Positions 24,444 to 41,460 of a stretch of 45,088 bases of DNA are shown here, one piece after another. A model generated the notes under the pieces. It was not told the origin of the DNA, made no database searches, and was given only the letters and a program-made list of their open reading frames with translations. The DNA lies in IMG/VR virus record IMGVR_UViG_3300038701_001628, positions 1 to 45,088 of that record; one strand, given 5' to 3'. This DNA comes from a virus. Made by a program: the position numbers and the translations under genes. Each line of letters starts with the position of its first letter. Position 1 is the stretch's first letter.

Positions 24444-24462
24444 ATAATTCGGAGTTAAACCA

Positions 24463-26781
24463 ATGACAGTTAATACAACAAACATCACTTCCGGGCCTTA
24501 TTCCGGTAATGGTATAACTACTGGGTTCTCTTACACTTTTCGTGCAGAGTTGAAGACTCAACTTCTTGTTTATGTCAAAGATGCTAGTAATGTAATAACC
24601 ACAAAAACAGTGGACACTGATTATACAGTTTCAGGTTTGGGGGATGACGATGGTGGTGTGGTTACATTCTTAACCGCACCCGTCACTGGAGAGACGGTTT
24701 ATATTCGTTCCAATTACCAGGCCACACAAGACACAGATTTTGATAGTCAAGGTGGTTTTTTTCCAGATGTACACGAAGCAGCAATTGATAAGTTAACATT
24801 TCAGATACAACAATTACAAGACCAAGTGAACAGATCGTTAAGAATAAATATCAACGATGACACAGGTAGTCTGGATCCATTAGCAGAGATAACTGCTAAT
24901 TCATTTTTAAGAGCCAATGCAACAGCAGATGGTTATGATCATTTCACATTACCCTCAGTCGGTGTTACTGCCGAAGTACCTCTCGCCTCATATGATGATT
25001 TTAGAAATGGTACTGCTAGTTTTGATATCGATGATTATTCTGATGGTCAGATAATTTGGTTTACAAATAATTTAATTTTCGGAGCCTTTGTTTTAAGAAC
25101 AGGGGCGTCTCCGGCTGACAATGGTGGAACAGTAATCCGATCTACAGTAGACACCAATAGATACGTGGAACGAGTATTTAGTGGTGCGGCATCGGTAAAA
25201 TGGTTTGGTGCTACAGGGGATGGTGTTACTGATGACAGTGCTGCTTGTCAGGCAGCTTTGGATAATCATCAAGCTGTGTTGTTTGATGAGCCAGATACTG
25301 CATACTTGATTGAGAATGAACTCATCCCCCCTACCAATCGATTGATCATTGGTCGTCGTGGGAAAATAGAAGCAGGCGCTGGGTTACAAATAGCTGCAGC
25401 TCAAGCTTTTGTGTTCAGACTTAATAATAACGGAATCACATTTAAAGACATGATCATTAATGTCGATTATTCTGTGTTTCCCAGAAACGCCAGTGACGAA
25501 GCAAAGGTTGGAGCCATATACGGCACAGGGCGAAATAATATAACATTGGAGAATTGTACAATCACCGGTGGTGCCAACTTCTTCCAAGCGTCCGGCTTCA
25601 TTGCTACTGGCTTAATTGAGATTAGAAACTCGGCGTTCATTAGACTTGAGAACTGTTTTGTCCGTGGAGATTATAGCGCAGCTTGGAGCGGATCAGCAGC
25701 AGGTTCAGAAATCTGCAAAATATTAACATGCACAGATGTTTCAATTATCGGTGGTGTTTATCGTCAGAGCTTTTATTCATGTATTGCAGTTGGTGTAGGG
25801 GGTGAGCGTGTAATTATTGATGGGGTTCAAGCTGATACATGTATTGGTTCTGTTATTAGTTTTAACGCTCAGGATGCTACGCTTGCGAACTCTGTTATAG
25901 GTGGGTCACGTGATGAAGGTGGTGTTGCGATGGGTCACCCATCTTCAGCAAGTGCGAGATGTAAGGTTCTTGGTAATACCATTTACGACTGCGGTCGAAG
26001 CGGTGTATCAGTAGCCTATCCTGACGCAATCATTGCTAACAATAACATAAGAGACTGTGAAACAGCTTCTCCTTCTGATACATTTGCTGCGGCCATCGCT
26101 ATCGGTGATTCCGCTAATCCTACCACATATAGAAATCGAGCAAGTGTCAGTGGTAATGTAATCCGTGGTTGTTATAACGGTATTGTAGTCAGTGATTCTT
26201 CTTTAGCTGGTGAAGATGGTTCTGATTATGCAATCAATGGTAATGTTGTAAGTAATTGTACGAATGCGGGTATTTATTCATCCGCGCCAAATGTTTCTAT
26301 AGTTGGTAATGTGACTCGATCGAATGATAGAAATATCCAAATTGAAACTACTAGATCAACTAACAACATAGTAACAGCGAACACTGTGGTTTCCGGTGTG
26401 ACTTATGGAATATTGGCTAGTTCACCAGGGTCTGGTACGAGAATATGGGGCAACACTGACGTTAATAATACGGCGAACAGTATTGCACATGAAGAATTAA
26501 CAATTGCCACAGGGGAGATTACAATAACTTCTGATCATCACTTCACTGTAGATACAGAGTCAGATGCTGCAACTGACGATCTGGTTACGATTAACGGCGG
26601 AATAGATGGGCAAGTTGTTACACTATCACCCGATAACGATACAAGAACAGTGGTTGTCAAAGATGGTTCTAACCTTCAACTGAACGGTGATTTTACAATG
26701 GATTCTAATGTGGACATGATTACTCTTAAGAAGATTGGCAGTAATTGGCGAGAAGTTTCCCGATCTGATGTATCTTCATAG
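24463..26781 (+). CDS. tailspike / tail fibre with pectate-lyase-type right-handed beta-helix (probable polysaccharide depolymerase)
   Basis: N-terminal fibre anchor YSGNGITTGFSYTF..DYTV. VKWFGATGDGVTDDSAACQAALD (Pectate_lyase_3 signature). Repeated NxxIxxC/G beta-helix rungs (NCTITGG, NNNIRDC, SGNVIRGC, NGNVVSNC). Confidence 0.8.
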   Translation: MTVNTTNITSGPYSGNGITTGFSYTFRAELKTQLLVYVKDASNVITTKTVDTDYTVSGLGDDDGGVVTFLTAPVTGETVYIRSNYQATQDTDFDSQGGFFPDVHEAAIDKLTFQIQQLQDQVNRSLRININDDTGSLDPLAEITANSFLRANATADGYDHFTLPSVGVTAEVPLASYDDFRNGTASFDIDDYSDGQIIWFTNNLIFGAFVLRTGASPADNGGTVIRSTVDTNRYVERVFSGAASVKWFGATGDGVTDDSAACQAALDNHQAVLFDEPDTAYLIENELIPPTNRLIIGRRGKIEAGAGLQIAAAQAFVFRLNNNGITFKDMIINVDYSVFPRNASDEAKVGAIYGTGRNNITLENCTITGGANFFQASGFIATGLIEIRNSAFIRLENCFVRGDYSAAWSGSAAGSEICKILTCTDVSIIGGVYRQSFYSCIAVGVGGERVIIDGVQADTCIGSVISFNAQDATLANSVIGGSRDEGGVAMGHPSSASARCKVLGNTIYDCGRSGVSVAYPDAIIANNNIRDCETASPSDTFAAAIAIGDSANPTTYRNRASVSGNVIRGCYNGIVVSDSSLAGEDGSDYAINGNVVSNCTNAGIYSSAPNVSIVGNVTRSNDRNIQIETTRSTNNIVTANTVVSGVTYGILASSPGSGTRIWGNTDVNNTANSIAHEELTIATGEITITSDHHFTVDTESDAATDDLVTINGGIDGQVVTLSPDNDTRTVVVKDGSNLQLNGDFTMDSNVDMITLKKIGSNWREVSRSDVSS

Positions 26782-27826: not shown

Positions 27827-28141
27827 ATGGGCACAAGATCTGCATTAGCCCCAATTAAAGATGGGAATATTCATACACTTGTGGACCTGGCTAACCACCC
27901 CACGACGGTTTACACGGGTCAGGGTGTGCTTATTGGTGTTATATGTCACACAACCACCAGTGCTCATCTCATTGAAGTTAAGGATGGGAGTGACGTTATA
28001 GCGAGATTGGCTGTGTCACTGAACATTGGCGACACTATTGACCTGTTTGAAATGGAATTCACTGAGAGCATTGTAATTGACGGGAACGCCGCAGCCACAG
28101 GAACCATTACTTTAATATATCAACCCTATCCTAATTCTTAA
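27827..28141 (+). CDS. hypothetical protein
   Basis: 104-aa ORF with GAGGA upstream. Last gene of the rightward operon. Confidence 0.55.
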   Translation: MGTRSALAPIKDGNIHTLVDLANHPTTVYTGQGVLIGVICHTTTSAHLIEVKDGSDVIARLAVSLNIGDTIDLFEMEFTESIVIDGNAAATGTITLIYQPYPNS

Positions 28142-29637
28142 AAGAAATTGACTTCAAGTTCATTTGTCGTAATTCCGTCCCTGTATCTTTGCAGGGCGGA
28201 TTTCAAACCGTCCTGATCATCTGTCTTGCGTTCAATTGCATCAGCAACAGCAAGGTCCACAGTGTCTCGGCACAGAATCCTAATGATTGAAACGGGGTTC
28301 TTTTGACCTTGTCGATTCAATCTGCCATTCATTTGTTCGTAAAGTTCAAGGCTCCAATTCATACCGAACCAAACCAATATGCTACCATTATCTTGGAGAC
28401 CATCGATACCGTGACCCATACTGGCAGGGTGACCAATGAGTAATTTAATTCTTCCAGCATTCCAGTCATCAATCACCTTCCCGGTTTGACTCGATGGGGT
28501 CTTGGTGAGATTGACTGGTTTAAGTGATTTAAACTTTTTCATTATTCGTTCAGCATCACTTTTGAAAGTGTAGCTACACAGCACAGGTTGACCACCAGCC
28601 TCTTCGAGTACATCATCAAGCGCTTCCAGTTTAGCATCGTGTAGTGACTCCCAGTCACTTGTGTCACCGACGTAAGGGGTACCATTACAGAACTGTAGAC
28701 ATTTATTAGAGACACTTGAGCGACTGAATAGCTCGATCTCACGACCATTCTCTAACATGGTGAACATGTTCTTCTCGACTTCCTGATATGCTTTACGAGC
28801 CTTCTCAGGAAGATCCACCATTACATTCGTAACTTTGCACTCAGGCATATCAAGATAATCTTTGGCATCCATCTTTTTAGTGATATCACTTATGTGATGT
28901 TCGATCCATTGCTTACCTTCTTCAGTGGGAGTGAAATTCCATCCGTTATAATCACTCGCAAAGTAGCTGTCTTTGTAATGGGTGATGTATTCACCGAGGC
29001 GTTTACCACCATCGACTGCGAGGTACTGACCGTGTAGGTCGAGATAACCGTTAGACGCAGGTGTGCCAGTCAGACCCACTCGATACTTGAACTCTTTAAT
29101 TAACTTGCGCCAACCGGTTATTTTAATTTTGTGAGTGGTGCCCCACTTATCTTGCCGGTCCCTGGTGCCGCCAGCCATGCGTCGAGTTGTGCTGTTTTTT
29201 AATTTTGAAACTTCATCATACACCACCATTTCAAATGGTAACTTCTTACCTTGACTCAAGTAATAATGATCCAGGGTCTCAGCTAACCAGTTCATATTTT
29301 CATAATTGCAGAGAAATAAATCAGCATCGGCAAACAGTGCGCGGGTTCGTTTCTCTTTGGTGCCGTGCATCACACTACATCGTAGGTGTTTGGTGTGTGT
29401 CCAGTTAGCACATTCCCTATCCCATACGGACTGGATTACTCTAAGCGGTCCAAAGATTAATACTTTGTTAACTTGACCTGCTCGCATTCTGTCGATGATT
29501 ACAGTCAATGTCGTTATGGTTTTGCCAAGGCCCATACCCAACCACAGCATTGCATCATCGTTATAGAGCATATGAAGACAGCACTCTTTCTGGTATTCGT
29601 GGAGATCTTCAGGGGTTAATAGTTGCGAAGGCACCAA
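28138..29637 (-). CDS. SNF2-family helicase
   Basis: Motif I LGMGLGKT, motif II VVYDEVSKL, GHPASMGHGIDGLQ, motif VI QMNGRLNRQGQ. Confidence 0.85.
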   Translation of the reverse strand: MVPSQLLTPEDLHEYQKECCLHMLYNDDAMLWLGMGLGKTITTLTVIIDRMRAGQVNKVLIFGPLRVIQSVWDRECANWTHTKHLRCSVMHGTKEKRTRALFADADLFLCNYENMNWLAETLDHYYLSQGKKLPFEMVVYDEVSKLKNSTTRRMAGGTRDRQDKWGTTHKIKITGWRKLIKEFKYRVGLTGTPASNGYLDLHGQYLAVDGGKRLGEYITHYKDSYFASDYNGWNFTPTEEGKQWIEHHISDITKKMDAKDYLDMPECKVTNVMVDLPEKARKAYQEVEKNMFTMLENGREIELFSRSSVSNKCLQFCNGTPYVGDTSDWESLHDAKLEALDDVLEEAGGQPVLCSYTFKSDAERIMKKFKSLKPVNLTKTPSSQTGKVIDDWNAGRIKLLIGHPASMGHGIDGLQDNGSILVWFGMNWSLELYEQMNGRLNRQGQKNPVSIIRILCRDTVDLAVADAIERKTDDQDGLKSALQRYRDGITTNELEVNFF

Positions 29638-30100
29638 AATGCTCCTTTGCTGCTTTATTATAAGTTAAAGAAGCTTCTTCAGGTGTGTCAAAGCGACCGA
29701 GATATGTTTGCTTTCCGTTTATCTTTATTTGAGCGTGCCATTTTCCTGATTTTTTATTTAAAGAAACGCCACGATAACCTGACGTGTTGTGTTTATGGAT
29801 GCCCGAGTTACCCGCATTCTGGGTACAGTTAGCGCCTCTTAAATTCAACCACCGGTTGTCTGTTCTATCCCTGTTTATATGATCCACATATTTAGGAATG
29901 TAACCTTCGACATATAACCAAGCAAGCCGATGTAGTCTGTAAATTTTCTGATTTATGATTGTATGCAAATAACCTTTACCGTCAACAGTACCGATAATTT
30001 GCCCCGGTAAAGACCGTGAACTTCTCCAAACTTTATTTTTAAAAAGCCCAGAATCAGGGTCATAATGTAGAATAGATTTTAAGTATATCTGAGTAATCAT
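29609..30100 (-). CDS. HNH-AP2 homing endonuclease
   Basis: HRLAWLYVEGYIPKYVDHINRDRTDNRWLNLR (HNH_3) plus GYRGVSLNKKSGKWHAQIKINGKQTYLGRFDTPEEA (AP2 DNA-binding domain). Confidence 0.85.
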   Translation of the reverse strand: MITQIYLKSILHYDPDSGLFKNKVWRSSRSLPGQIIGTVDGKGYLHTIINQKIYRLHRLAWLYVEGYIPKYVDHINRDRTDNRWLNLRGANCTQNAGNSGIHKHNTSGYRGVSLNKKSGKWHAQIKINGKQTYLGRFDTPEEASLTYNKAAKEHFGAFATINP

Positions 30101-30136
30101 TTGATTATTCTACATGTACTGAAGGAAATACACAAT

Positions 30137-30409
30137 CTATTTATGCACCTTCTTATGCAACCAAATCGCAAACCAGCAACCAATCCAACCACCTGTACTA
30201 TATGACAATGCGATCCATAATGCTTGACTCCAACCTTCTTCAATAATCTCAATGGCACTGACACCAACCATTGCGACTTCTAAAGCACCCATCACATAAC
30301 TGGTGGGAATGATTGAAAACCAGCGATCAAGCATTACGTTTTTTTGTTGAAATGCTCTCGCTGCTACTTTGAAAAAACCTATAAGGAATATGACTGCGAT
30401 GGGTTCCAT
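30137..30409 (-). CDS. small integral membrane protein
   Basis: 90 aa with three hydrophobic segments (IAVIFLIGFF, VMGALEVAMVGV, WIALSYSTGGWIGCWFAIW). Confidence 0.55.
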   Translation of the reverse strand: MEPIAVIFLIGFFKVAARAFQQKNVMLDRWFSIIPTSYVMGALEVAMVGVSAIEIIEEGWSQALWIALSYSTGGWIGCWFAIWLHKKVHK

Positions 30410-30954
30410 ACTTTAAATAAACCTTTGAGTTGTTCTACTTCGAGTTTCAGATCATCAAGTGATCCATTGTTGTCAACCCATACCATACTCTGTGGGTCGC
30501 ACTTTATTTTCATCGACGGTTCTTCAGGGTGACGCTGACTAGCATCGACCCATAACACGTAGTCAAAGAGTTCTTGTGAAGCTTCGAACTCTTTATCACA
30601 ACGCATCCCGACATACATGTCATTTTTACTGATAATTAATTTACACAATGCTGACTTGTCCGGGGTATTGTACAACGTTATGAGTTCTTTCCACAAGTCT
30701 CGACAAGAAGCACGATCATCAAAGGCAGCTTCTTTATCTTCATACGTGTACTCAGTAGCCACATCTAGTGCAGGCCAGATTGCATCAAGAGCTGCACGAC
30801 TTGAGCTGATGAAACTCAAACCATATTCTTCAGAGATCATTTCAGCAACGGTATCTTTACCGTGACGACCGTGGCCAATTATTAACAGTTTCTTTTGAGT
30901 GTCGAAAGTCTCGACTAAATGTGGATCTTCACATTGGGTTTGATTTTCTAACAT
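30379..30954 (-). CDS. P-loop dNMP-kinase-like protein
   Basis: LLIIGHGRHGKDTVAEMI P-loop, with DMYVGMRCDKEFEA resembling the DvRf.nE motif of phage deoxynucleotide monophosphate kinases. Confidence 0.5.
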   Translation of the reverse strand: MLENQTQCEDPHLVETFDTQKKLLIIGHGRHGKDTVAEMISEEYGLSFISSSRAALDAIWPALDVATEYTYEDKEAAFDDRASCRDLWKELITLYNTPDKSALCKLIISKNDMYVGMRCDKEFEASQELFDYVLWVDASQRHPEEPSMKIKCDPQSMVWVDNNGSLDDLKLEVEQLKGLFKVWNPSQSYSL

Positions 30955-30955
30955 G

Positions 30956-32494
30956 TTACAACTTCCTCATAAGTGGCGACAGTTTGTCTTTAACTAAACT
31001 AAACAATGCACGTTTTCCATTTGGGTATATTATGCAATGGGTGTTCATCCATGACGAGTAACCAACTGCGTAATCTAAATCAAGAGTAGATGTTCCAACT
31101 TGATAACAACCTTTCTCAATCGCAGGAGTGTGACTGTGACCAATGATTGTTTTGTTACCAGTTTTACTGAATGACTTCGCACTACCGCGAGAACCATTAG
31201 GACCAACGTCACCGTGCTGACTACAGTCAATTCCTTCAATTTCGAATGATTCATTCCCATCAACGAATCGGACATCAGTGCTGCAATACTTTTCAATAAA
31301 TAAACGATACAAGTTACCATCGCCACCCTTGTCCAAGTCATCCCTAGCAAGAGAAGCTAACTCGTAATAGAGTTCAAGATTAACAGGATCACTGTTTGGC
31401 TTGAACCTGTTGAACCACTGATCAAGATGACGGTGATGATTCGAATCAATGAGGACTGCTTTGTTGCGACCTTCAAGAAACTTGATTGACAACATTAATT
31501 CATCACGAACACTGAACTCTTTGGTCAAACTTTTCTTCAAGTGGAAAAGAGTGTTCTTGTCATTGTGGTGTGATCCAATATGGTGATCGTGTAGGTCGTG
31601 GTAAACTTCATGATCAGGTTTAAGAGCCGTGCATACTTGGTCTAATTGGTCAATTGTTTTTTTGCTCAACGATCGAACATGAGTGTCACCGAAAACTATA
31701 CCGGGTATTTTATTAACTTTGCGACTTGATCTTGGTGTGTAATAACGATCAAACAAATGAACACCGGTACCATCGAATCTCAATTGAGTGGGCCAGAATT
31801 TGTCGCCTTCAATTTCAACAAACAATGCACCAATGGAATGATGGAACTCTGCCTTCTTGCCCATCTTCGACGAGCTGTAATTCTTAACAGAGATGCTGCC
31901 TGTTGTGTGAAGCATCTTTGGTATTTGATCCTTCGCAGTTGCGACAAGCTGCATTGCTATTTGCGGATGACCAAATATTTCAGATCGTGCATCACCGGCG
32001 TGATTCATTCCACCAAGTGGATTAATGGCTGTATATTGAATAGGGAACAGCGATCGTATCACTAGATGATTATTCAATTCAATGTCGGCATTGCAAAGAT
32101 ATGGAAGAATTTCTTCAGGCCAAGTGTAGTTTTGCTGGATGCCTTGGTTCACCATGTTTGGGTTTTTATATCGACCGGGGATTATCAAGTAACAAGCATC
32201 AAGATCTCTTGCCATCTTCTCGAAAGTATTATGTGCTTCACTTACTAACCCGGTGTCATTGACTGCACTAGTAATTATGAAACGTCGGTGGCGTTTCACC
32301 TCAGTGACTTTTGTTTTAGGTAACAGTTGCGGCGCGGTGTAGATTGTATTGGTTGTTCTATGACCACAGCTAATACACTTATATCGAGTTCTGCCAGATT
32401 CGGCTTTGTAAGTTAATGGTCTCATCCCTGGTTGAGCACACTCGGGACAGTATAAATCATCTCTTGTTTCAAACTTAACCTTTGGACCTGGCAT
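30956..32494 (-). CDS. zinc-ribbon + unknown domain + calcineurin-like metallophosphoesterase
   Basis: CPEC...CISCGH at the N-terminus. The C-terminal half has the ordered motifs GDTHV, HDLHDHH, DSNHH, QHGD, GHSHTP. Confidence 0.65.
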   Translation of the reverse strand: MPGPKVKFETRDDLYCPECAQPGMRPLTYKAESGRTRYKCISCGHRTTNTIYTAPQLLPKTKVTEVKRHRRFIITSAVNDTGLVSEAHNTFEKMARDLDACYLIIPGRYKNPNMVNQGIQQNYTWPEEILPYLCNADIELNNHLVIRSLFPIQYTAINPLGGMNHAGDARSEIFGHPQIAMQLVATAKDQIPKMLHTTGSISVKNYSSSKMGKKAEFHHSIGALFVEIEGDKFWPTQLRFDGTGVHLFDRYYTPRSSRKVNKIPGIVFGDTHVRSLSKKTIDQLDQVCTALKPDHEVYHDLHDHHIGSHHNDKNTLFHLKKSLTKEFSVRDELMLSIKFLEGRNKAVLIDSNHHRHLDQWFNRFKPNSDPVNLELYYELASLARDDLDKGGDGNLYRLFIEKYCSTDVRFVDGNESFEIEGIDCSQHGDVGPNGSRGSAKSFSKTGNKTIIGHSHTPAIEKGCYQVGTSTLDLDYAVGYSSWMNTHCIIYPNGKRALFSLVKDKLSPLMRKL

Positions 32495-32499
32495 AATTT

Positions 32500-32847
32500 T
32501 TACCTCAATGTTTCTCGAACTTCTTTAATAAACTCATCGACACCTTCGACACCATAAACAACAAGCGCGCTGACACCATGATCTCTGAGTCTGTCGATCT
32601 CACGTTTTTGCCAAGGACTAAGTCGACCATCAATTGTTTTAACTTCAACAAACCATACAAGACCGTTGACAATTACAATCCTGTCAGGAACACCATTTAC
32701 CCCTGGTGAAACCCACTTGCGAGTAATGCCACCAAGCTTCATGATTTCTGAATCTAAGTATCGTTCAACTTTGTTTTCACGTGCTGCCATACTGTTCCCC
32801 GTGATTAAATAGATCAGACAATTATAAAAATAAATTAAATACTTCAT
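32500..32847 (-). CDS. VRR-NUC nuclease
   Basis: GVPDRIVI...VWFVEVKT...LSPWQKREIDRL (PD-(D/E)xK core). ATGA coupling to the polymerase stop. Alternative start ATG at 32790 (MAARENK). Confidence 0.75.
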   Translation of the reverse strand: MKYLIYFYNCLIYLITGNSMAARENKVERYLDSEIMKLGGITRKWVSPGVNGVPDRIVIVNGLVWFVEVKTIDGRLSPWQKREIDRLRDHGVSALVVYGVEGVDEFIKEVRETLR

Positions 32848-34829
32848 TCTTCCTCCGTCAATAATGTTACAAGCTTCTCAGCTTGCTTGATGTACCACTC
32901 ATGATTTAGTGTATCGAATGTAACACCTTCGAGATTATTACACAACTCAACAGACCAACCAGTATTGATGCCTGTGCGACGTTCTTCATAAACGCTTTTA
33001 TTCTTAGTGTGTATACGCTCATCCCACACGTCTCCTACTTCTTCTAAGACAGTCTGGTACTGGAAGTCCGATATGCCATTCTTGCGTTTAAACGCACCCT
33101 CTGGTCCCGCAGGAGGCATGACCTTCTCAAGCGGTCTTCCTTCTGTTGATATGAAATATCGAACGATGTTGCTGACTTGTTCTCCACCCCATTCAAGTCG
33201 AGTAGACCTGGGTACTTTTGCTCGTAGAAAGAAATCAAAGATGTCATCGTGCCCAGCGATAAAGGACCGAATGTCAGCACCGTGTACAAGCGCAGCTTCA
33301 GCAGCCTTTGGTACAATGATTGCTGAGTGGTTTTGGTGCCAACCGAGTTCGTATTCATATGCGCCTTTCCGTTTCAGATCGCCACTGGTGTATTCTGCAA
33401 TATAATTATTCACATCTCGAATAAACATACGCGAGTATTCAGCAGCTTCAAGTTCAAGATTGGTTAAGTTTTCCCACCATGATTGGACTTGCTCAATCCA
33501 GGGTTTCAATGAGCGTGGGCATCGAATGGTCAGACCATCAGTGTTAATCTGAATCATTTGAACATCTGGTGAATTCATCAGTGCTTCAGCTAACATACAC
33601 AGAAGAAGCTGTCCATTAATCGTAATCGACATTGTGTACTGGGGGTCATAGAATGGTGAGTATTTGTTATTCGAATCCCCGTAAACCCCGTTGAGTGCCA
33701 GCTTTAGCATCGCATTGATCGCCGGGAATTCTTTCTTCGGGTGTGCTTTACGCATTTCGTAAACGTCACTGTACACTTTGTAAAAAGTTGAACCCAAATG
33801 GGCAGGATAAAACTTATTTGCAATTGCAAGGTTCGGGTAGTAGCTGGCAACATCCAGATCAATGATAATAAATTCTTCATCTGAACTCACAATCGATGAT
33901 TCAATTGACCCGTGAATACCACCTGTACCGAAGTCGAAATTAAATCCATTCACATTACAACTAATGTCTTTAAACACACCTTTGGTTTCAGTGATTACTT
34001 GAGACTTGAACCAATCAAGAATGCGGTTAAACTCAGGATCAGAAAAGCTAACGCAAGGGAGAATAACATCAGACAAATCAATTTTATCACGGATCGTTTG
34101 CACCATCTGGCGGCGACCATTGGAGTAATTATAGCAACACCCTGGCGCGACTTTCTCCAACTCCATGATGAAGTAGTCTTTACCAATCTTTGTATCATTG
34201 TGATTGATGAAGTTCTTGTCGTATTTATTAGTGAGTTCTTCGCGGAATTGAATTTGCTCTTTAGTTTCATGATAAAAATCCACAGTAGCATCAACGTCGT
34301 GATCGTTGTATTTACACAGTACATCTATCTGATCACTGGTCAACTCGGTACCAACGTCGAAAGGAAGATCTTCAATGTTATTCATTCGCATGTTGAACTC
34401 AAGCACTTTTAAGCTGGTAGCTCGTGCAACATTATCGAAGTGATGAATTTTAAAAAGATCTATTTGAGGAACTAACCAATCACTTTCCCACACCATGTGT
34501 GTGAACCTGGCGTTATGTTGTGCGTTGATGATTGACATTGCCTTGTCATAAATATCTTTGTAAGTAATCAGTGCATTCTGATTCTGTGCAATAAAGTGAA
34601 CCACCGGGTAATCGAATCCGATGTTGTTGAACCCCACCCATCGGTTACCGTTAATGCGACAGTAGTTGATGAACTGAACCATGAGAACAATGTCATTGCG
34701 GCGCGGTGAGATCTCAAACGCCCAGCGACGATCGAGATCCACATGACGACATCGAAACGTAAAGACATTTGGGTATGTTTCGATGTCGTAGGCGATGTCG
34801 CCAGTTGGCAGGTTAAATAGAAATTCCAT
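32844..34829 (-). CDS. DNA polymerase with 3'-5' exonuclease domain (family-B-like motifs)
   Basis: Exo I YDIETY, Exo II GFNNIGFDYP, Exo III YNDHDVD. Pol motif A DLDVASYYPNL, motif B KLALNGVYGDS, motif C QINTDGL. Confidence 0.8.
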   Translation of the reverse strand: MEFLFNLPTGDIAYDIETYPNVFTFRCRHVDLDRRWAFEISPRRNDIVLMVQFINYCRINGNRWVGFNNIGFDYPVVHFIAQNQNALITYKDIYDKAMSIINAQHNARFTHMVWESDWLVPQIDLFKIHHFDNVARATSLKVLEFNMRMNNIEDLPFDVGTELTSDQIDVLCKYNDHDVDATVDFYHETKEQIQFREELTNKYDKNFINHNDTKIGKDYFIMELEKVAPGCCYNYSNGRRQMVQTIRDKIDLSDVILPCVSFSDPEFNRILDWFKSQVITETKGVFKDISCNVNGFNFDFGTGGIHGSIESSIVSSDEEFIIIDLDVASYYPNLAIANKFYPAHLGSTFYKVYSDVYEMRKAHPKKEFPAINAMLKLALNGVYGDSNNKYSPFYDPQYTMSITINGQLLLCMLAEALMNSPDVQMIQINTDGLTIRCPRSLKPWIEQVQSWWENLTNLELEAAEYSRMFIRDVNNYIAEYTSGDLKRKGAYEYELGWHQNHSAIIVPKAAEAALVHGADIRSFIAGHDDIFDFFLRAKVPRSTRLEWGGEQVSNIVRYFISTEGRPLEKVMPPAGPEGAFKRKNGISDFQYQTVLEEVGDVWDERIHTKNKSVYEERRTGINTGWSVELCNNLEGVTFDTLNHEWYIKQAEKLVTLLTEEE

Positions 34830-35014
34830 TAATCACACACCACTAATTCGCCATCTTCATTTTTGCTAAGGTATATTGAATTACTTGAACCCTTCAGTCT
34901 AACACTATCAACAAGAGCATCATCATCAATGTTCAAACTATCGAGCAACCCTTTCAACTTACCAACTGTAAGTTTTTCAGAAGGGTACTCTGTTACTATT
35001 TCATCATACTTCAA
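34829..35014 (-). CDS. hypothetical protein
   Basis: 61-aa ORF coupled at both ends (4-nt overlap with mazG, 1-nt overlap with pol). Confidence 0.55.
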   Translation of the reverse strand: MKYDEIVTEYPSEKLTVGKLKGLLDSLNIDDDALVDSVRLKGSSNSIYLSKNEDGELVVCD

Positions 35015-35616
35015 AATTTCTTACCTCCAACTTCAGCACGGTTCTCGCGCTTATGATCAGAACGACTCGCATTGTAAGAAAGCTTCTCTTCAACAGCACC
35101 ATGAAGATCATACTTCTGCAACCTGGCCACAATGATGATGGTGTCGATGAGTGCCGAGTACATAACTGAGTCTGGACCAAAATCGCTGGTCTTAAGAAAC
35201 CCGCAACCAAATGCAACAGCACCGCATGATATCAAGAAGTGTAGTCCAGCAGGTTCATCCAGGTTAGCAGTGAACTCGTCTTCCATCTGATCAACTGCGT
35301 CAGTCTCTTCATACACCAAACCACAATGAGCACCGAGATCTACAGTGCGTATGAGCGCGTCAGCAAGCTCCACTTCTTCCATCTTGCGATGGGGTAGGTG
35401 ATCATCCATCAGGTCTTTACGAGCACCCTCGGTGGCTTCAGCGACCTCAGTAAGAATGAGTTGAGCTGTCGTCATTAAACAACGATTAGGATTATCCCAC
35501 CAGCCGACTTCTTTATTCTGAGTGTAGACTCGGGTTGCTAGTTCGTTAATGTAATCTTGGTCTAGTTCTTGCATTGGGTTCTCCTGATTTTTAATTAATG
35601 GGTTTGGTCGAATCAC
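35011..35616 (-). CDS. mazG: MazG-like nucleotide pyrophosphohydrolase
   Basis: LTEVAEATEGARKD and MEEVELADALIRTVDL (the ExxE...ExxD metal-binding helices of MazG). Confidence 0.7.
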   Translation of the reverse strand: MIRPNPLIKNQENPMQELDQDYINELATRVYTQNKEVGWWDNPNRCLMTTAQLILTEVAEATEGARKDLMDDHLPHRKMEEVELADALIRTVDLGAHCGLVYEETDAVDQMEDEFTANLDEPAGLHFLISCGAVAFGCGFLKTSDFGPDSVMYSALIDTIIIVARLQKYDLHGAVEEKLSYNASRSDHKRENRAEVGGKKF

Positions 35617-35768
35617 ACAGTGTTAACCGTTATGACCGTCCGACTATCGTCTCGTCCTCAACCCGGTGGACCTCATTACAGGGATAGTTCCCGTCGCGCC
35701 GTTAGACTCTCATGCGCAATAAGCTAGTTTTACGACAGTAGGGATGTCAGCCAGCCTGCTTAAACTTT

Positions 35769-36503
35769 TTAAGCGAACGATGTCGCTATGATTCCAAACT
35801 TAGCTCGTAAGTCTGCTTCACTCAGCACCTCTTGACCACAGTAGAAATAACCCGGTGCCGATGGGTGAGCAGTCCAACCTTCAGGTGGGAACTGTGGGGC
35901 AGAGACAGGTGGCGCAACTGGGGGTGGTGTAGGAGCCACTGGTGCACCTGCTGCAGGTGTCGCAGGTGCGACCTCACAGTCAGCAAACATCTGCTCAGGT
36001 GTTGCTTTATTATCAAAGCGACCAAGAGGACATTCACCACCAGTCAACATGACACCATTAAGCCACCCGCCGATGCCACCCTTACCGTCAGAGTAACCAG
36101 TGATACCACAGGCAACCCAACATTCAGCACCAGGGTAGGCTGCAGCGGGGTCCATAACAGGTTGCATATTAGCGTCAACGACACTGGGTCGATCGTTCTC
36201 TTTAGCTGACAAAGTCAAACAGTAGTAGCCTGAAAACTTCGCGTCATAGTAAGCCTTACCTGCACACTTGGTGTCGTATGGTATGAAAGCTTTACGCAAG
36301 TCAGCAGGTGCACCTGATGGGTACTTGTTGGCAATCTCGGCGTTTTGAATACCTTCGATTGTTGCAATCTGTGGGTCACCCGGTGGAAACATAAGATCCA
36401 TTGTGAACCGCTTCTTATCACCCATTGGATTACCTTGCGCATTACGCGCATAGTCAGCGGTGAAGATCTGTGGAAAAGAAATAAAGCCTTTAAACTTGTA
36501 CAT
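35769..36503 (-). CDS. ssDNA-binding protein, gp2.5/DUF2815-like
   Basis: The N-terminus MYKFKGFISFPQIFTA... and its position next to a DUF2800-type nuclease fit this family. Pro-rich linker and C-terminal ...ATSFA tail. Confidence 0.5.
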   Translation of the reverse strand: MYKFKGFISFPQIFTADYARNAQGNPMGDKKRFTMDLMFPPGDPQIATIEGIQNAEIANKYPSGAPADLRKAFIPYDTKCAGKAYYDAKFSGYYCLTLSAKENDRPSVVDANMQPVMDPAAAYPGAECWVACGITGYSDGKGGIGGWLNGVMLTGGECPLGRFDNKATPEQMFADCEVAPATPAAGAPVAPTPPPVAPPVSAPQFPPEGWTAHPSAPGYFYCGQEVLSEADLRAKFGIIATSFA

Positions 36504-36512
36504 TGAGTTCTC

Positions 36513-37949
36513 CTAAAAGAATGATATTGGTTGTTCAGGTTCTGATTGTACATCCTTCGTTGTACTTTGTGCAACATCTTCATCAATAATTTTTTGTATT
36601 GATGCAGTATCGTCAGTGGTCCCATTTCCTGCGGGTTCTTCAAACAAAGAAGGTGAAGGTACATCTTTGAACATGTCTTCAGCGCTGACCTTCTGCTTCT
36701 CACGAGAAACTTTTGTAAGTCTTAGTTTACCGGCTTTGTGAGTGATATAGTCTTTCTCGATGCGTTTTTTCTGAGCATCATCGAGACAATCCAACTTCAA
36801 CACTTGCGCAGGACTGATCAGTTTCGGTGGAAAGATCTGGTCTTTCTTCAAGCGTCGAGCCTTCAACATTTTAGCAATGTTCTCTTCACTGTCATTCCAG
36901 ACATTAGAACCGCGTCCAGGTTGCAATGCGTAACCCGGTACCGTCTCGCCACTTTCAAGTCGTGTGTTAATCTCAGCTTCAACTTTTTCAAATATCGCTT
37001 CGATCCCAGCACGAGCGTCAGCAAGTTCCGACAACTGGTCAACTGTCAACTCTTTTACTTTATCTAATGACTGACCAACCAATTCAAATAAACTGGTTCC
37101 ATCAGTCGCAATCACATCTGTGGTCATAGTTTTCACCGTTTCTAAACTGCGCCCTGATTCAGCAGTGCAGTTTGATTTATGTTTACACCATCGACAGTAC
37201 CCCTTACCACCTTTACTGTCAGGTATCAATGGTGCTTCGGGGTCATCGGTGGCACGAGCAGCATGAGCCAGTTTCTCAGCTTCAGCAATGATGTATGTTG
37301 CTGTTGTGTCCTCATACCTAACAACTGGGTCAGTCTTGGGTTGCACGATTGTCATCCGACAAGGTCCAACTTGTTCAGGTCTGAATGGTCGACAAAGGTC
37401 AGGACCACTGGCGACAAATGGTCGAAGCTTCCCAGCAAGGTAGCTGATTAACTGAGTGTTACCTGGCACATGAACCCATCCGCGACCATCTTTATAGTCA
37501 CAGACTTCAAGGAATAAACACTTACCGTGATTATTTACAGCACTGATTGTAATATCCACCGTGCCCCACCAGTCGCCACGACCAAACATGCCACCAACAT
37601 CGGCTTTACTTTCAGTTTCGACTTTGACAGTGCTGCCAGGGTAGGCATCACGCAACTCACGCACACGACGCGACACATAGTCCAAGCACATCTGCACTCG
37701 TTCAATACGGTCCTCACTGACCAACCACCCCATTGGATTATCTGGGTGGTTACAGCCGATAACTTGACCATCATAAGTGTCAGCACGTACACCATTCTGC
37801 AAGCATAACTCTAACAGCAAGTGACTACCGGTTCCGTCGATGGCAGCTTCGCCAGGGATATCCTCGTAAGCTGCTTCTTCACGAACGGAGCCGGGGCAGT
37901 TCGGCCAGCGATGATTGCTTGGTCCTAATCTTGCATGTCCCTCACTCAC
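36513..37949 (-). CDS. PD-(D/E)XK (Cas4/DUF2800-like) exonuclease
   Basis: GPSNHRWPNCPGSVRE, LEVCDYKDGRG (D..D/ExK) and the Cys cluster CRWCKHKSNC. Confidence 0.7.
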   Translation of the reverse strand: MSEGHARLGPSNHRWPNCPGSVREEAAYEDIPGEAAIDGTGSHLLLELCLQNGVRADTYDGQVIGCNHPDNPMGWLVSEDRIERVQMCLDYVSRRVRELRDAYPGSTVKVETESKADVGGMFGRGDWWGTVDITISAVNNHGKCLFLEVCDYKDGRGWVHVPGNTQLISYLAGKLRPFVASGPDLCRPFRPEQVGPCRMTIVQPKTDPVVRYEDTTATYIIAEAEKLAHAARATDDPEAPLIPDSKGGKGYCRWCKHKSNCTAESGRSLETVKTMTTDVIATDGTSLFELVGQSLDKVKELTVDQLSELADARAGIEAIFEKVEAEINTRLESGETVPGYALQPGRGSNVWNDSEENIAKMLKARRLKKDQIFPPKLISPAQVLKLDCLDDAQKKRIEKDYITHKAGKLRLTKVSREKQKVSAEDMFKDVPSPSLFEEPAGNGTTDDTASIQKIIDEDVAQSTTKDVQSEPEQPISFF

Positions 37950-38413
37950 GCCGTTACCGCCTTCACTTTATCAATGACTGCCTGATACTGGTCAGCTTTT
38001 AACTCGGTGATTGATTGAACACCAAACTCACGCAACACAGCGTCAATGGGGTCACGTTTACCAAGTCGCTTAAACTCGGTGACCAGCGCCGCATTTAACT
38101 CATCGGCTGTCATTGTCGCTGCAGGCGCAGGGGGTGTACTGGGCGCGGAAACCGGAGCAGCAGATGGTACCGTCTCCGTCACAGGTGGTGCAGGCGTAAC
38201 CGGTGCCGCTGGGGTGGTGGTATTCTGGGTAGGGTTCCCAGGAGGTGGCGTAACCGTCTCCGCTGCAGATGGGGCAGATGGTGGTACCGGAGGCTTTGGG
38301 GCGACAATTTCATCAACCTCACTCTGTGACACTGCGCCACCGATGTGGTCAAGCTTGGCCAAAATACCTTCAAGTGAATCAGCGATTCGTTTTAGGTTGT
38401 TCTCGATGCTCAT
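37946..38413 (-). CDS. hypothetical protein with long Pro/Ala/Thr-rich linker
   Basis: 155-aa ORF with ATGA coupling on both sides. Confidence 0.55.
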   Translation of the reverse strand: MSIENNLKRIADSLEGILAKLDHIGGAVSQSEVDEIVAPKPPVPPSAPSAAETVTPPPGNPTQNTTTPAAPVTPAPPVTETVPSAAPVSAPSTPPAPAATMTADELNAALVTEFKRLGKRDPIDAVLREFGVQSITELKADQYQAVIDKVKAVTA

Positions 38414-38586
38414 GATTTTTCCTTCTTGGGTTTAATTGTTAATCGTTCCTCATTGTGAGCAACAATCATGTTGCGTAGCACAACTTGGTGTGGGATCTCT
38501 TTGGCTCTACACTTCTCAATGAACGTGGATTTATCACCCTCATTGATACGCATGTCCAGCCGATCGTCTAGTGGTTTATCGGACAA
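38410..38586 (-). CDS. ribbon-helix-helix (CopG/MobC-like) regulator, TTG start
   Basis: My translation is (M)SDKPLDDRLDMRINEGDKSTFIEKCRAKEIPHQVVLRNMIVAHNEERLTIKPKKEKS. GGAGG lies 9 nt upstream of the TTG, and the stop overlaps the next ATG (ATGA). Not in the ORF track (58 aa). Confidence 0.5.
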   Translation of the reverse strand: MSDKPLDDRLDMRINEGDKSTFIEKCRAKEIPHQVVLRNMIVAHNEERLTIKPKKEKS

Positions 38587-38850: not shown

Positions 38851-41460
38851 ATGCCAAGTAATTTAGAATTTCTAACTGCACTATTCGGAGACAACGCACC
38901 CTGGGTTCATGTTACTGATTTTCCTTACGATCCTGCCAACATTCCAAGCGAACGACACTTAGCGGCATGGAAGGGTGACTACTTTAGTCGCTATCAGTTC
39001 CAGAATGGAACCAATCAATACTTCACAATAAGCAACTTTTATGCCGATGAAAAAGGTGTTGCTCGTAGACGTAAAGCGTTATTCCGACACACACCGGTGA
39101 TAGTCCTTGATGACGTGAAAGAAAAGTTATCAATGGATGAAGTGCAGAAATTACCCAAACCATCATGGATTCTCGAAACCTCGCCGGGTTCTGAGCAGTG
39201 GGGGTACATCTTATCTGAACCATGCACGAGTCGTGCCAGGGTGGAGAACTTACTTGACGGACTGGTCGCTAATGGTCTAGCTCCCGCTGGTAAAGATCCA
39301 GGTATGAAAGGCGTCACTCGTTACGTGCGCTTGCCTGAAGGTTACAATACTAAGTCAGCCAAGATGATTAATGGTCAACCATTTAAGTGTCAAATAACTG
39401 AATGGAACCCCTTTCACACGGTCACTCTTGAACAACTTGCAGCGCCCTTTCACGTAGACCTCGACGCTATTAGGCGTGATCAACGTGTCGATGGTGCTGC
39501 TCAGGTTGATGATCACCCATTACTGCAAATCCCAGACCTGATACGAATCAAGGAAGTGCGTAGTGAAGGTCGATTCGATTGTACATGTCCCTGGGTGGAC
39601 GAGCACACAGGTTGTGAGGATTCAGGTTCGGCGATTTTCACCAATGGTGATGGGTCGATAGGATTCAAATGTCATCATGGTGCTTGTCAAGACAGGACTG
39701 GGCGACATTTGCTTAACTTCATTGAAGAACAAGCACCGGGGTTTAGTCAAAAATTCAACAACTGGCAGATGGTCAATGCTTTTGCTGATGTTTCTAGCGT
39801 CTCATTTATGGGAGATTCTGAGAAACAAAGTGTAGAAAAGTGCACTTTAGGGTCCAAAAACGCGAATAATGAGCAGTTTAATGTACCTTATGAATCGGTA
39901 CCCCCGGTACCAGCACAACCCCAAGAACAAACCGAAGACATTATAAAGCAAGTATTGCGCCAACTCAGAGCTGAGATACCAGGGTCTCAACAGTCGATCG
40001 ATTTGGCATCCAAAATTCTGAAACAGATCGACTCGATGCCTGAGATACAGAAGATCACTTGGCACAATGATGTATGTGATGTTATGAAATGGTCTAAGCG
40101 CGACTTCGAGCGGATCATGAAGGATCTGCGCAGCACGTGGTATGAGGAATCACAGTCAAGCGTCAACTTCTTCGATGAAGTCATCTATGTAGCAGAGCAG
40201 AATCAATTCTTCGATCGCCGTAAGCGTATATGGTACACACCAGAGGCATACCAAAACACATACTCACATCTGGACCCTGAAGCCCGTAAGGAAGCGTTAC
40301 AGGGTGGTCGTGTCACCAAAGTGGACAAGGTGGACTACGCCCCTAAAAAACCTGCCGTGTTCGATGAGCGAGGTACCATTTACGGTAACGCTTGGCATGG
40401 CGACAGTGAGATGATGGGAGTGGAGGGTGATGTGTCCACATGGCTCGATCACTTCGACATTCTCGGGTGGGGTCAGTACCGTGACCACGTACTCAAGTGG
40501 ATGGCATGGACCATTGTCAACCCTGATATCAAGATCAACCATATGGTGTTACTTGGCAGCGGTGAGGGTTGCGGTAAAGACTGGCTGATGTATCCTTTAG
40601 TTAAGGCAATGGGTGATAACCATATGACAATCAGCGGGGAAGAACTGCTTGAAGGCTTTAACGACTACGTATTATCCACGAAACACCTACACATCAACGA
40701 AGCCGAGTTGGGCGACAGGAATGAAGCTGTTGCGGTATCGAGTAAACTTAAACCGTTGGCAGCAGCACCCCCAGAAAAATTACGAGTCAATCAAAAATCG
40801 GTCAAGAAGATCGAAGTACGGAACCTTCTAAGTGTCAGCATGACCACCAACTCCCAAACACCGGTGCGGTTAAGCGGTCACTCCCGTCGTATATTCGCAC
40901 TTTGGTCTGACTTAACCGTCAGAAATGACTGGGGTGAGATGAAGCAAGAGTGGAAAGACTTCTGGGGTGCTGCGTGGCCCTGGATGACCGATGGTGGATG
41001 GCAGCATTGTATCTGGTACTTACGCAATTGTGTTGACTTGTCGAACTTCAACCCTGGTGAGTCACCCCCTGTTACCGCATTCCTGCGTGACATTGTTGAC
41101 GCCAGCCGATCACCCCTACAGCAGACATTACAGCGGTTGATTATGACAGGTTTCGGTGTCTTCAAATCTGACTTGGTCACCAGTGAGGATATTGTCAACA
41201 CGATCAATGCTGGTATGAACTTCCATCCTGATATGATCTTTGTCAAGTCAGTACCTCAACCAAATCGCATCGGTCCCGCTTTGAAAGAGATGGGTGCACA
41301 TTATCGACTAGATGCCAAGACTGAGAATGACACTGCTTCATTGTGGGTGATACGCAACCATGATAAGTGGAGAAACTTCACTCCGTCCGAATTGATGCAC
41401 GAGTATCGTCGGATGGTTGGTGACTATAAATCAAATACACCTGTGAGTGTTGTGAAATGA
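38851..41460 (+). CDS. primase-helicase (prim-pol N-terminus, Zn-binding segment, P4/D5-type ATPase)
   Basis: VIVLDDV and ETSPGSEQWGYIL (primase core). CTCPWVDEHTGC...FKCHHGAC (zinc-binding). Walker A LLGSGEGCGKDW and Walker B LHINEAE. Confidence 0.8.
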   Translation: MPSNLEFLTALFGDNAPWVHVTDFPYDPANIPSERHLAAWKGDYFSRYQFQNGTNQYFTISNFYADEKGVARRRKALFRHTPVIVLDDVKEKLSMDEVQKLPKPSWILETSPGSEQWGYILSEPCTSRARVENLLDGLVANGLAPAGKDPGMKGVTRYVRLPEGYNTKSAKMINGQPFKCQITEWNPFHTVTLEQLAAPFHVDLDAIRRDQRVDGAAQVDDHPLLQIPDLIRIKEVRSEGRFDCTCPWVDEHTGCEDSGSAIFTNGDGSIGFKCHHGACQDRTGRHLLNFIEEQAPGFSQKFNNWQMVNAFADVSSVSFMGDSEKQSVEKCTLGSKNANNEQFNVPYESVPPVPAQPQEQTEDIIKQVLRQLRAEIPGSQQSIDLASKILKQIDSMPEIQKITWHNDVCDVMKWSKRDFERIMKDLRSTWYEESQSSVNFFDEVIYVAEQNQFFDRRKRIWYTPEAYQNTYSHLDPEARKEALQGGRVTKVDKVDYAPKKPAVFDERGTIYGNAWHGDSEMMGVEGDVSTWLDHFDILGWGQYRDHVLKWMAWTIVNPDIKINHMVLLGSGEGCGKDWLMYPLVKAMGDNHMTISGEELLEGFNDYVLSTKHLHINEAELGDRNEAVAVSSKLKPLAAAPPEKLRVNQKSVKKIEVRNLLSVSMTTNSQTPVRLSGHSRRIFALWSDLTVRNDWGEMKQEWKDFWGAAWPWMTDGGWQHCIWYLRNCVDLSNFNPGESPPVTAFLRDIVDASRSPLQQTLQRLIMTGFGVFKSDLVTSEDIVNTINAGMNFHPDMIFVKSVPQPNRIGPALKEMGAHYRLDAKTENDTASLWVIRNHDKWRNFTPSELMHEYRRMVGDYKSNTPVSVVK

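Follow-up and report, generated by a model that had tools for sequence, protein, structure and literature searches.

In bacteriophage T7, the tails of gp2.5 and gp4 dock on the gp5 polymerase and on the DNA cleft of gp2.5. Hubs that receive client motifs also exist in eukaryotic replisomes, where Ctf4 is bound by CIP-box clients and RPA70N and RPA32C by motifs of their own clients. The same logic of one hub and many motif-bearing clients, among them a nuclease, an SNF2-type helicase and a primase, may apply to the virus described here, although the proteins and motifs are unrelated and the comparison is one of analogy only. Tail logic as such is already known from T7 and T4; what we report is of this kind, but with a motif of its own and a wider client set. 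In the literature we searched, no description of such a shared, lineage-specific tail was found.

The window, the whole stretch of viral DNA that was analyzed (45,088 nt), comprises positions 1-45,088 of the IMG/VR record IMGVR_UViG_3300038701_001628. It has no close DNA relatives among phage records, as megablast of the region returned only two matches of 64-99 bases. An original prediction had proposed that its SSB, a PD-(D/E)XK nuclease and an SNF2 helicase share one C-terminal SF-hydrophobic tail. All the termini it quoted are present where it had placed them, including the PSFL-type end of ORF 1600-2064(+) (..RPEAPSFL). The shared tail is real, and the evidence for it goes beyond what had been proposed, with the qualification that SSB ends in a variant that is not identical to the tails of the nuclease and SNF2. 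We found two further carriers, ORF 989-1603(+) (..NGVSFL) and TerS 2097-2570(+) (..DDVSFM). In all, 6/54 window proteins have [STN]F[FLMIVA] as their last three residues, whereas 0.14 would be expected if the pattern were as frequent at the ends as it is internally (P = 6.5e-9), and an enrichment of this size rules out chance as the source of the shared tails. The stricter pattern [VIPL][STN]F[FLMI] is found at the end of 5/54 proteins (P = 1.6e-10), and in a motif-blind test only 5 of 5000 random draws contained five proteins with one common dipeptide at -3/-2. The six tails are written in different Ser, Phe and stop codons and are followed by different DNA, indicating that selection acts on the peptide; we therefore rejected a signal at the DNA or RNA level.

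The carriers have little in common apart from this ending. The DUF2800/PD-(D/E)XK nuclease (36513-37949, minus strand; Pfam PF10926, E 6.5e-40) has the C-terminus ..EPEQPISFF, with ISFF encoded at 36516-36527, and a second motif, MFKDV, lies upstream of the tail at 36660-36674 on the same strand. Database homologs retain the tail in 118/120 cases and loci in 81/82; because the metagenomic loci are relatives of each other, retention counts here and below do not represent independent events. The SNF2-family helicase (28138-29637, minus strand; Pfam SNF2-rel_dom and Helicase_C) ends in VNFF (..NELEVNFF, 28141-28152), and 47 of its 51 orthologs end in [STN]F[FLMIY]. TerS, the small terminase subunit (2097-2570, plus strand; Pfam Terminase_2, phrog_51), carries VSFM (2556-2567) behind a long, hypervariable, low-complexity linker; among its homologs, 72/82 have a terminal [STND]F[FLMIY], and SF stands at -3/-2 in 78/82. 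Directly preceding TerS on the plus strand are a 204-aa protein (989-1603) with the tail VSFL (1589-1600) and a 154-aa protein (1600-2064) with the tail PSFL (2050-2061), both of which lack any family match. Between the latter and a tail-bearing 293-aa protein of Vibrio phage MZH0603, the likeness is confined to the tail.

The remaining two carriers deviate from this scheme. The gp2.5/Enc34-type SSB (35769-36503, minus strand; Pfam PF10991 (DUF2815), 34.3 bits against a cut-off of 26) weakly matches PDB 4jg2, a DUF2815 protein, and ends in TSFA (..GIIATSFA, 35772-35783). The consensus of its lineage is ..AI[RK]PSF followed by 0-2 small residues: the form P-S-F-(A/V/G) is kept in 54-60 of 67 orthologs, P[ST]F lies within the last 5 residues in 54/67, and only a few end exactly in PSF or TSF. 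The primase-helicase (38851-41460, plus strand; Pfam DUF5906 and RepB_primase) ends in VVK, as had been noted before, but the linker that joins its primase and helicase halves contains the motif once, as SSVSFMGD (VSFM at 39799-39810). Such linker copies, 1-4 per protein, are present in 43/57 orthologs, or in 48/57 when D/T variants are counted.

Across families the motif reads [E/D/P]-[V/I/P]-[S>N,T,D]-F-[F/L/M/I]. Among 182 distinct nuclease tails, F occupies -2 in 100%, S occupies -3 in 94% and V/I/P occupies -4 in 92%, while positions -6 to -10 are random, so that a hypervariable linker is followed by an invariant motif. The 15 residues before the nuclease motif have a mean net charge of -2.7 (range +3 to -6), and 18 of the 182 tails contain second motif copies. 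The same five-residue logo is seen in the 81 internal primase-linker copies. In C-terminal and internal copies alike, position 4 is always F, and position 5 is F, L, M or I. At least eight unrelated families carry the motif convergently and sometimes in several copies per protein. Convergent carriers include a family of 171-aa proteins (6/8) and two families of DNA methyltransferases (2/6 and 2/4), as well as small proteins encoded near TerS that are unrelated. Few fixed positions, variable surrounding segments, convergence and, often, several copies are the general hallmarks of short linear motifs, and the motif here shows all of them, with 1-4 copies per protein.

How does this motif compare to the known ones? 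As in T7, several replisome proteins, the SSB among them, have one short C-terminal peptide in common, and it comes after a flexible stretch. The SSB is of the same structural family as that of T7 (gp2.5/Enc34, PF10991). Both SSB and primase-helicase bear the motif, and in Nazgul and Enc34 both carry the tail of their own lineage at the C-terminus. In T7, however, the aromatic residue comes last after a strongly acidic run, whereas here the invariant F is penultimate, the end is hydrophobic and the linker only weakly acidic. In addition, the motif also occurs internally here, and it is found on a much broader range of clients (exonuclease, SNF2, TerS, methyltransferases). Bacterial SSB likewise has an acidic run with Phe as the last residue (..DDDIPF), while the clients here end in SF plus a hydrophobic residue. 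The S-F-[F/L/M/I] ends do match the class I PDZ ligand pattern [S/T]-x-hydrophobic-COOH, but that interaction needs a free carboxylate, whereas the internal primase-linker copies have the same logo. Neither a PDZ nor another known peptide-binding Pfam domain was detected in the 30 window proteins scanned, which covered the structural proteins in part.

The internal copies also bear on the idea that a protease reads the ending as a tag for degradation or regulation, or that the ending is simply a structural end-cap. Hydrophobic C-termini can generally serve as degrons, and the last 10 residues of SNF2 are conserved as a block (TTN[DE]LEVNFF). Yet repeated copies of the same logo inside the primase linker do not fit a terminal degron, and the long hypervariable low-complexity linkers before the motif in nuclease and TerS do not fit a fold element. 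Even SNF2 orthologs with a different preceding sequence still end in ISFI, PSFL or LSFL. We regard both variants of this explanation as very unlikely.

We then compared sister lineages and found that they swap the SF motif in concert for other shared tails. BPP-1 has EDLV on the nuclease, ADLV on SSB, AGLV on TerS, ADLI on a methylase and related ends on two more proteins. The D-L-V/I tail of this lineage is kept by 53/80 nucleases and ~60/78 SSBs in 80 BPP-1-like loci. In BcepNazgul, GL ends primase, nuclease, SSB, helicase and TerS alike, and in Enc34 the same is true of DEV for primase, nuclease, SSB and TerS. L007 has LGL on the nuclease, LGI on SSB and ..ALGLE on a 703-aa protein. Having its own LG[LI] tail, L007 was rejected as a tail-less relative, as were PEi21 and Sasha, which have only the polymerase in common with the window; none of the three is therefore a test of tail loss. 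The Yersinia phage fEV-1 keeps SFL/SFA/NFF tails together with a different packaging module, the TerS of which is tail-less. The tails thus follow the replication module even into genomes with another packaging module, and TerL, named in the original prediction as a possible partner, was rejected as the receptor on these grounds.

The host beta sliding clamp (DnaN) had been suggested as well, in which case the tails would be clamp-binding motifs that recruit phage proteins to it. Many features of clamp clients (QL[SD]LF; T4 gp45 with gp43, gp33 and gp55; Mu MuC) are indeed found here: many unrelated DNA enzymes, methyltransferases included, share one chemically similar motif (hydrophobic, S/D, two hydrophobics), which is terminal or internal, sometimes in two or tandem copies, and which couples replication to later functions. 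Use of the host clamp by a phage also has a precedent in MuC (QPDLF) of Mu (PMC12867686). However, Q stands at -5 in only 1/182 nuclease tails, where the consensus is E/P/D, and position 4 is never L or M. The window encodes no clamp of its own, and the polymerase, normally the main clamp client, is never tailed. Moreover, the tails are lineage-specific: within one host order, fEV-1 (Yersinia) has SFL and Enc34 (Enterobacter/Hafnia) has DEV, and all clients change together from one lineage to the next. Neither observation would follow from a conserved host pocket, which makes recruitment to the host clamp improbable.

A phage-encoded receptor could be the DNA polymerase, as T7 gp5 is for the tails of gp2.5 and gp4, and this too had been put forward. 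The polymerase (32844-34829, minus strand; phrog_1252, E 2.5e-202) has no Pfam or PDB sequence match, and its relatives are annotated as family B. It ends in EEE, as reported earlier, and a tail is carried by 0/55 of these polymerases. It is the sole large replisome protein that is tail-less in all four lineages compared. The T7 precedent is established (cited in PMC5686142), and the tails of Enc34 share the acidic character of the T7 tails. On the other hand, 9 sister loci with SF tails have a PolA-like enzyme in its place that has no detectable homology to it (hhalign probability 1.6%), and all of them keep the tails. These loci interleave with the others by nuclease identity (45-60%), and the same PolA-like family accompanies DL[VI], GL and DEV tails elsewhere. 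Conversely, polymerases of the window type are found at 53-56% identity in Sasha and PEi21, both without SF tails, and a search for an insertion specific to the SF lineage relative to these two phages found none. While the polymerase is the receptor in T7, it probably is not here, and we consider this role unlikely. A further tail-less member of the module is the VRR-NUC nuclease (32500-32847, minus strand; Pfam PF08774; tail in 0/44).

The docking idea at the core of the original prediction is strongly supported by the comparative evidence, because the motif is invariant behind hypervariable linkers, is convergent and is replaced in concert, whereas the proposed receptors were not supported. 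This includes the primase-helicase, as its internal copies, and a C-terminal tail in Nazgul and Enc34, make it a carrier and not a tail-free receptor. From sequence comparison we infer, with a probability of roughly 70%, that the SF ending is a peptide by which proteins dock on a single partner, encoded by the phage within its replication module. Placed at the end of flexible linkers, or within them in the primase-helicase, the motif would tether DNA enzymes to this common partner, which would co-evolve with the tails. The putative clients are the DUF2800 exonuclease, SNF2, the primase-helicase, TerS and the two proteins next to TerS, with DNA methyltransferases as likely further clients in some relatives. 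The SSB appears to bear a weaker version, P-S-F with a small residue or none. There could also be several receptors instead of one.

Our best guess for the receptor, a tentative one, is the gp2.5/Enc34-type SSB itself, since its body accepts the C-terminal tails of neighboring molecules. Crystal structures of Enc34 ORF6, of two further DUF2815 proteins and of T7 gp2.5 show the C-termini resting on the concave beta-sheet of the adjacent molecule, and in T7 the tail competes with ssDNA for the same surface (PMC5686142). Clients might accordingly be recruited to SSB-coated DNA or might compete there with the tail of SSB. Against this guess, the SSB ending of the lineage differs from the client tails, and the SSBs of Jersey-like phages have no shared motif altogether.

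A second and rather doubtful candidate is p155, a conserved 155-aa protein encoded directly upstream of the nuclease (37946-38413, minus strand). An AF2 model, good only for its N-terminal helix and its C-terminal three-helix domain, places a Pro/Ala-rich tether between the two. An HMM match to p155 is found upstream of the nuclease in every motif-bearing locus, an SF tail is present on 0/56 of these proteins and on 0/160 family representatives, and p155 is fused to SNF2 in L007. A precedent is provided by lambda Red-beta, the C-terminal domain of which binds its exonuclease and the SSB tail: this domain and lambda Orf both fold as bundles of three helices, and they bind lambda Exo and the C-terminal peptide of E. 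coli SSB (PMC6393309). As in this phage exonuclease/annealase system, the helical domain of p155 is small and flexibly tethered, and an exonuclease gene lies next to its own. However, p155 is a separate protein with a coiled-coil-like N-terminal helix, and neither sequence nor Foldseek similarity to the lambda proteins was found. It has no Pfam match, PDB sequence matches are limited to GCN4-like coiled-coil fragments (E > 0.2), and Foldseek of the model against PDB gave nothing with E < 2 and hence no significant neighbor, which counts against p155, as does the lineage tail on its Enc34 homolog. A profile search of 1.8 billion representatives yielded 1526 relatives, almost all of them stand-alone and 90-200 aa long, so that recurrent fusions reveal no partner. 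In a single-sequence model of a 203-residue chimera, p155 followed by the last 48 nuclease residues, the tail was not confidently placed (pLDDT ~50-58). The p155 HMM had no match in Sasha or PEi21; proteins resembling p155, judged only by reading the proteins there, may sit upstream of their nucleases. No shared tail was seen in these modules.

It is possible, though we would not expect it, that the whole replication-recombination module (primase-helicase, p155, DUF2800 nuclease, gp2.5-type SSB, VRR-NUC, SNF2 and TerS) is wired by a lineage-specific tail code (SF-hydrophobic, DL[VI], GL, DEV, LG[LI]) into a hub centered on SSB or p155. The clients of this hub would span replication, recombination, DNA methylation and packaging initiation. 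Being private to a lineage, the code would act as a compatibility barrier. If true, this barrier would explain why the genes of the module move as a set while the polymerase, which has no tail, is readily swapped, and also which genes mosaic phage genomes can and cannot exchange. A tail alone would then suffice to assign unknown proteins to the hub, an annotation rule by which 989-1603 and 1600-2064 would become members of the replication/recombination machinery. The DUF2800/DUF2815/SNF2/VRR-NUC module is very common, occurring in Chi-like, Nazgul-like, BPP-1-like, Jersey-like and many marine phages, and the shared tail would provide an experimental handle in the cultivable fEV-1, Enc34, BPP-1 and Vibrio phages MZH0603, 1.021.A and 1.185.O. 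It would also be evidence of a physical link between the machinery of replication and recombination on the one side and packaging initiation by TerS and DNA methylation on the other.

The window is a 45-kb podophage-like genome whose + strand holds the structural and packaging genes as one block and whose - strand holds a replication block (28138-38586). The original prediction had noted that several of its DNA enzymes share a C-terminal S-F-hydrophobic tail and proposed that this tail is a docking peptide for one hub; all the termini it quoted were correct on checking. Family searches identified among the carriers an SNF2 helicase (28138-29637) and a DUF2800/PD-(D/E)XK nuclease (36513-37949), alongside an Enc34/gp2.5-type SSB (35769-36503; PF10991, 34.3 bits). 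We found two further carriers, the ORF at 989-1603 (VSFL) and the small terminase TerS (2097-2570, by family searches; VSFM). Altogether, [S/T/N]-F-[F/L/M/I/V/A] ends 6 of the 54 window proteins versus 0.14 expected, given how often the pattern occurs internally (P = 6.5e-9), and a motif-blind test for any dipeptide common to five proteins at positions -3/-2 gave about 0.001. Serine codons, phenylalanine codons, stop codons and downstream DNA all differ among the six tails, so the constraint acts on the peptide.

No close relatives of the window were found at the DNA level among the isolated phages searched. Protein searches returned relatives in Yersinia phage fEV-1, Vibrio phage MZH0603 and further Vibrio phages. 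The fEV-1 proteins end in ..LEVNFF (SNF2), ..APSFA (SSB) and ..DIPSFL (nuclease), those of MZH0603 in ..DEISFF (nuclease), ..LEVNFF (SNF2) and ..GDISFM (TerS), and an unrelated 293-aa protein of MZH0603 also ends in ..EQPSFF. Terminal [S/T/N]-F-[F/L/M/I] was present in 118 of the 120 best nuclease homologs (52-73% identity), among which the 10-40 residues preceding the tail are unalignable. We then called and clustered the ORFs of 80 metagenomic viral loci around nuclease homologs, using a simple longest-ORF rule under which C-termini depend on stop codons alone; antisense ORFs masked some genes in GC-rich loci. In these loci, which are phylogenetically related to one another, the tail ended 81/82 nucleases, 47/51 SNF2 helicases, 10/12 TerS (72/82 homologs in a separate search), 6/8 members of a 171-aa family and some members of two DNA methyltransferase families, and the SSB ended in P-S-F plus 0-2 small residues in 54-60 of 67 cases. 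It was absent from all polymerases (0/55) and VRR-NUC proteins (0/44) of the set and from p155, the 155-aa product of 37946-38413 (-) (0/56, plus 0/160 family representatives). The 58-aa protein encoded upstream of p155 (38410-38586) is kept in 30 loci, always without the tail (0/30), and by eye only looks like a small ribbon-helix-helix-type regulator.

The logo of 182 distinct nuclease tails has E/P/D at -5, V/I/P at -4 (92%), S at -3 (94%, otherwise T or N), F at -2 (100%) and F/L/M/I at -1, and next to no preference at -6 to -10; the tails of TerS and SNF2 yield the same logo. The primase-helicase (38851-41460, divergently transcribed; family searches) ends in VVK and had been considered a receptor. 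It carries the motif internally instead, as 1-4 copies of [E/P]-[V/P/I]-S-F-[M/L] in the variable Pro/Ala-rich linker that joins its primase half to its helicase half. The copy in the window reads SSVSFMGD (39799-39810), and 43/57 orthologs have the motif, rising to 48/57 with PDFM-type variants. A free carboxylate is therefore not needed and the primase-helicase is itself a carrier, which makes it an improbable receptor. The motif is convergent in at least eight unrelated families. Few fixed positions, a variable context, multiple copies and convergence are all typical of short linear interaction motifs.

Sister lineages carry other endings on the same proteins. In Bordetella phage BPP-1, whose nuclease is 31% identical, 6/49 proteins share an ending: nuclease EDLV, SSB ADLV, TerS AGLV, Bpm methylase ADLI and small proteins GDLV and GGLV. 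Across 80 BPP-1-like loci, [D/G/A]-L-[I/V/L] is kept in 53/80 nucleases and about 60/78 SSBs. BcepNazgul, Enc34, L007 and the Jersey-like phages are represented by one or two genomes each. BcepNazgul uses G-L throughout (primase GCGL, nuclease DDGL, SSB GGL, helicase AAGL, TerS AAGL), and in Enc34 D-E-V ends primase, nuclease, SSB and TerS, the p155 homolog ends in EEEEV and the helicase in WDDEED. Locus L007 has ..ELGL (nuclease), ..ILGI (SSB) and ..ALGLE (a 703-aa protein). Jersey-like phages have D-[D/E]-D-L near the C-terminus of both primase and nuclease, as in Escherichia phage Bas83 (L171) and phiEap-2 (L088) with primases ending ..ATDDDLKD and ..DDDLAD and nucleases ..ATDEDLSNE and ..DDDLSN, respectively; their SSB has instead a C-terminal acidic run with basic residues after it. 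Bas83, which grows on E. coli, is a possible test system. DSL-LC05 is intermediate (nuclease ..SLPSWLS, SSB ..SLPSFFGQ). Since the sister lineages have their own tails on the same proteins, a shared tail is a general property of the module family, and all carriers switch tail together. Such joint change is what would be expected if one partner co-evolved with them. A second conserved linear motif, [M/L]-M-F-x-D-V, occurs in 59/84 nucleases and 16/68 SSBs, at a distance of 20-80 residues before the tail (in the window, nuclease MFKDV 36660-36674, SSB MFADC 35976-35990 and primase AFADV 39778-39792). BPP-1 and Nazgul carry similar motifs (D-F-A-D-V, E-F-D-D-I, C-F-D-D-L, S-F-D-D-V); unlike the tail, this second motif seems to be kept across lineages.

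We wondered which protein might receive the tail. A scan of 30 window proteins revealed no clamp, PDZ or other known peptide-binding domain, and the receptors originally proposed are mostly unsupported. A host clamp would fit in that the motif chemistry resembles QL[SD]LF and phages such as Mu can exploit the host clamp (PMC12867686). However, Q occurs in only 1/182 tails, F occupies position 4 throughout, the motif is never on the polymerase, and fEV-1 and Enc34, both on Enterobacterales, have unrelated tails, leaving a host receptor very unlikely. The phage DNA polymerase (32844-34829; family searches) is also an unlikely receptor: nine loci of the SF-tailed lineage, interleaved among the others by nuclease identity, encode a PolA-like enzyme for which no homology to the window type could be detected (hhalign probability 1.6%) yet have the same tails, and the PolA-like family is also found with DLV, GL and DEV tails. 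Conversely, Sasha and PEi21 have a 53-56% identical window-type polymerase and no SF tails were seen there; beyond the polymerase, BLAST matched only, in PEi21, a ~21%-identical nuclease and part of the primase-helicase. No lineage-specific insertion was found in the window-type polymerase. In fEV-1 (L001, 28828-31480) the polymerase gene is interrupted: ORF g47c separates its two parts, g48c and g46c, which hints at an inserted element. TerL was rejected: fEV-1 has a different packaging module and a tail-free TerS and keeps the tails.

The replication block further encodes a VRR-NUC nuclease (32500-32847) and, just upstream of the SNF2 gene, an inserted HNH-AP2 homing-type endonuclease (29609-30100) that overlaps the predicted TTG start of that gene (both by family searches). 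A P-loop kinase-like protein (phrog_38514/85/139) and a 512-aa phrog_1745 protein (E 1e-117, labelled 'DNA transfer protein'), both within 30379-32494, may form a DNA- or nucleotide-modification set with a pyrophosphatase (35011-35616; phrog_5658). The structural block holds a single 2794-aa ORF (16059-24443) with a counterpart in MZH0603 (19763-25471). Arrays of one 27-nt tandem repeat unit, rotated, occupy both window ends (1-239, 8.9 copies; 44675-45088, 15.3 copies), probably as a single array spanning the contig junction or as terminal repeats; ORFs 2-430 and 44649-45041 merely translate them.

The receptor would be expected among the products of the co-inherited replication module. p155 is a tentative candidate, second to the SSB. 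Its gene lies directly upstream of the nuclease gene in all motif-bearing loci, and it belongs to a large family of stand-alone proteins (1526 representatives). Its N-terminal helix (MSIENNLKRIADALE) is invariant and is joined by a long Pro/Ala-rich tether to a C-terminal domain of three helices. L007 (8193-9980) encodes an in-frame fusion of the SNF2 helicase with an entire p155-like protein, N-terminal helix, linker and C-terminal domain included. The architecture of p155 recalls the C-terminal three-helix bundle of Red-beta, which binds lambda Exo as well as the tail peptide of SSB (PMC6393309); structural similarity between the two was not detected. Against p155, its Enc34 homolog bears the tail itself, and modules that lack an obvious common tail may also encode p155-like proteins. 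When a chimera of p155 and the nuclease tail was modelled with AF2 from its single sequence, the tail was left unplaced.

We favor the SSB, at a probability of roughly one in three. It is the only classical hub protein of the module and always carries the lineage tail, except in Jersey-like phages. In its structural family, C-termini dock onto the concave beta-sheet of neighbours (Enc34 ORF6, two DUF2815 proteins, T7 gp2.5), and in T7 the tail and ssDNA compete for a single surface (PMC5686142). The last residue of the SSB ending is small or missing in the SF-tailed lineage, which might reflect a weaker self-contact, open to displacement by full client tails. The remaining probability falls to several receptors or another one.

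The shared tail was thus confirmed and extended to six window carriers, to relatives and to internal primase-helicase copies, and its evolution supports well the proposed role as docking peptide. The same logic, shared tails converging on one partner, is found in T7 and T4. Judging by the literature searched, three points are new: the motif itself, the wide range of its clients (exonuclease, SNF2, TerS, methyltransferases) and a tail code that differs from lineage to lineage across the module. The tail-bearing module is very common, yet unstudied.
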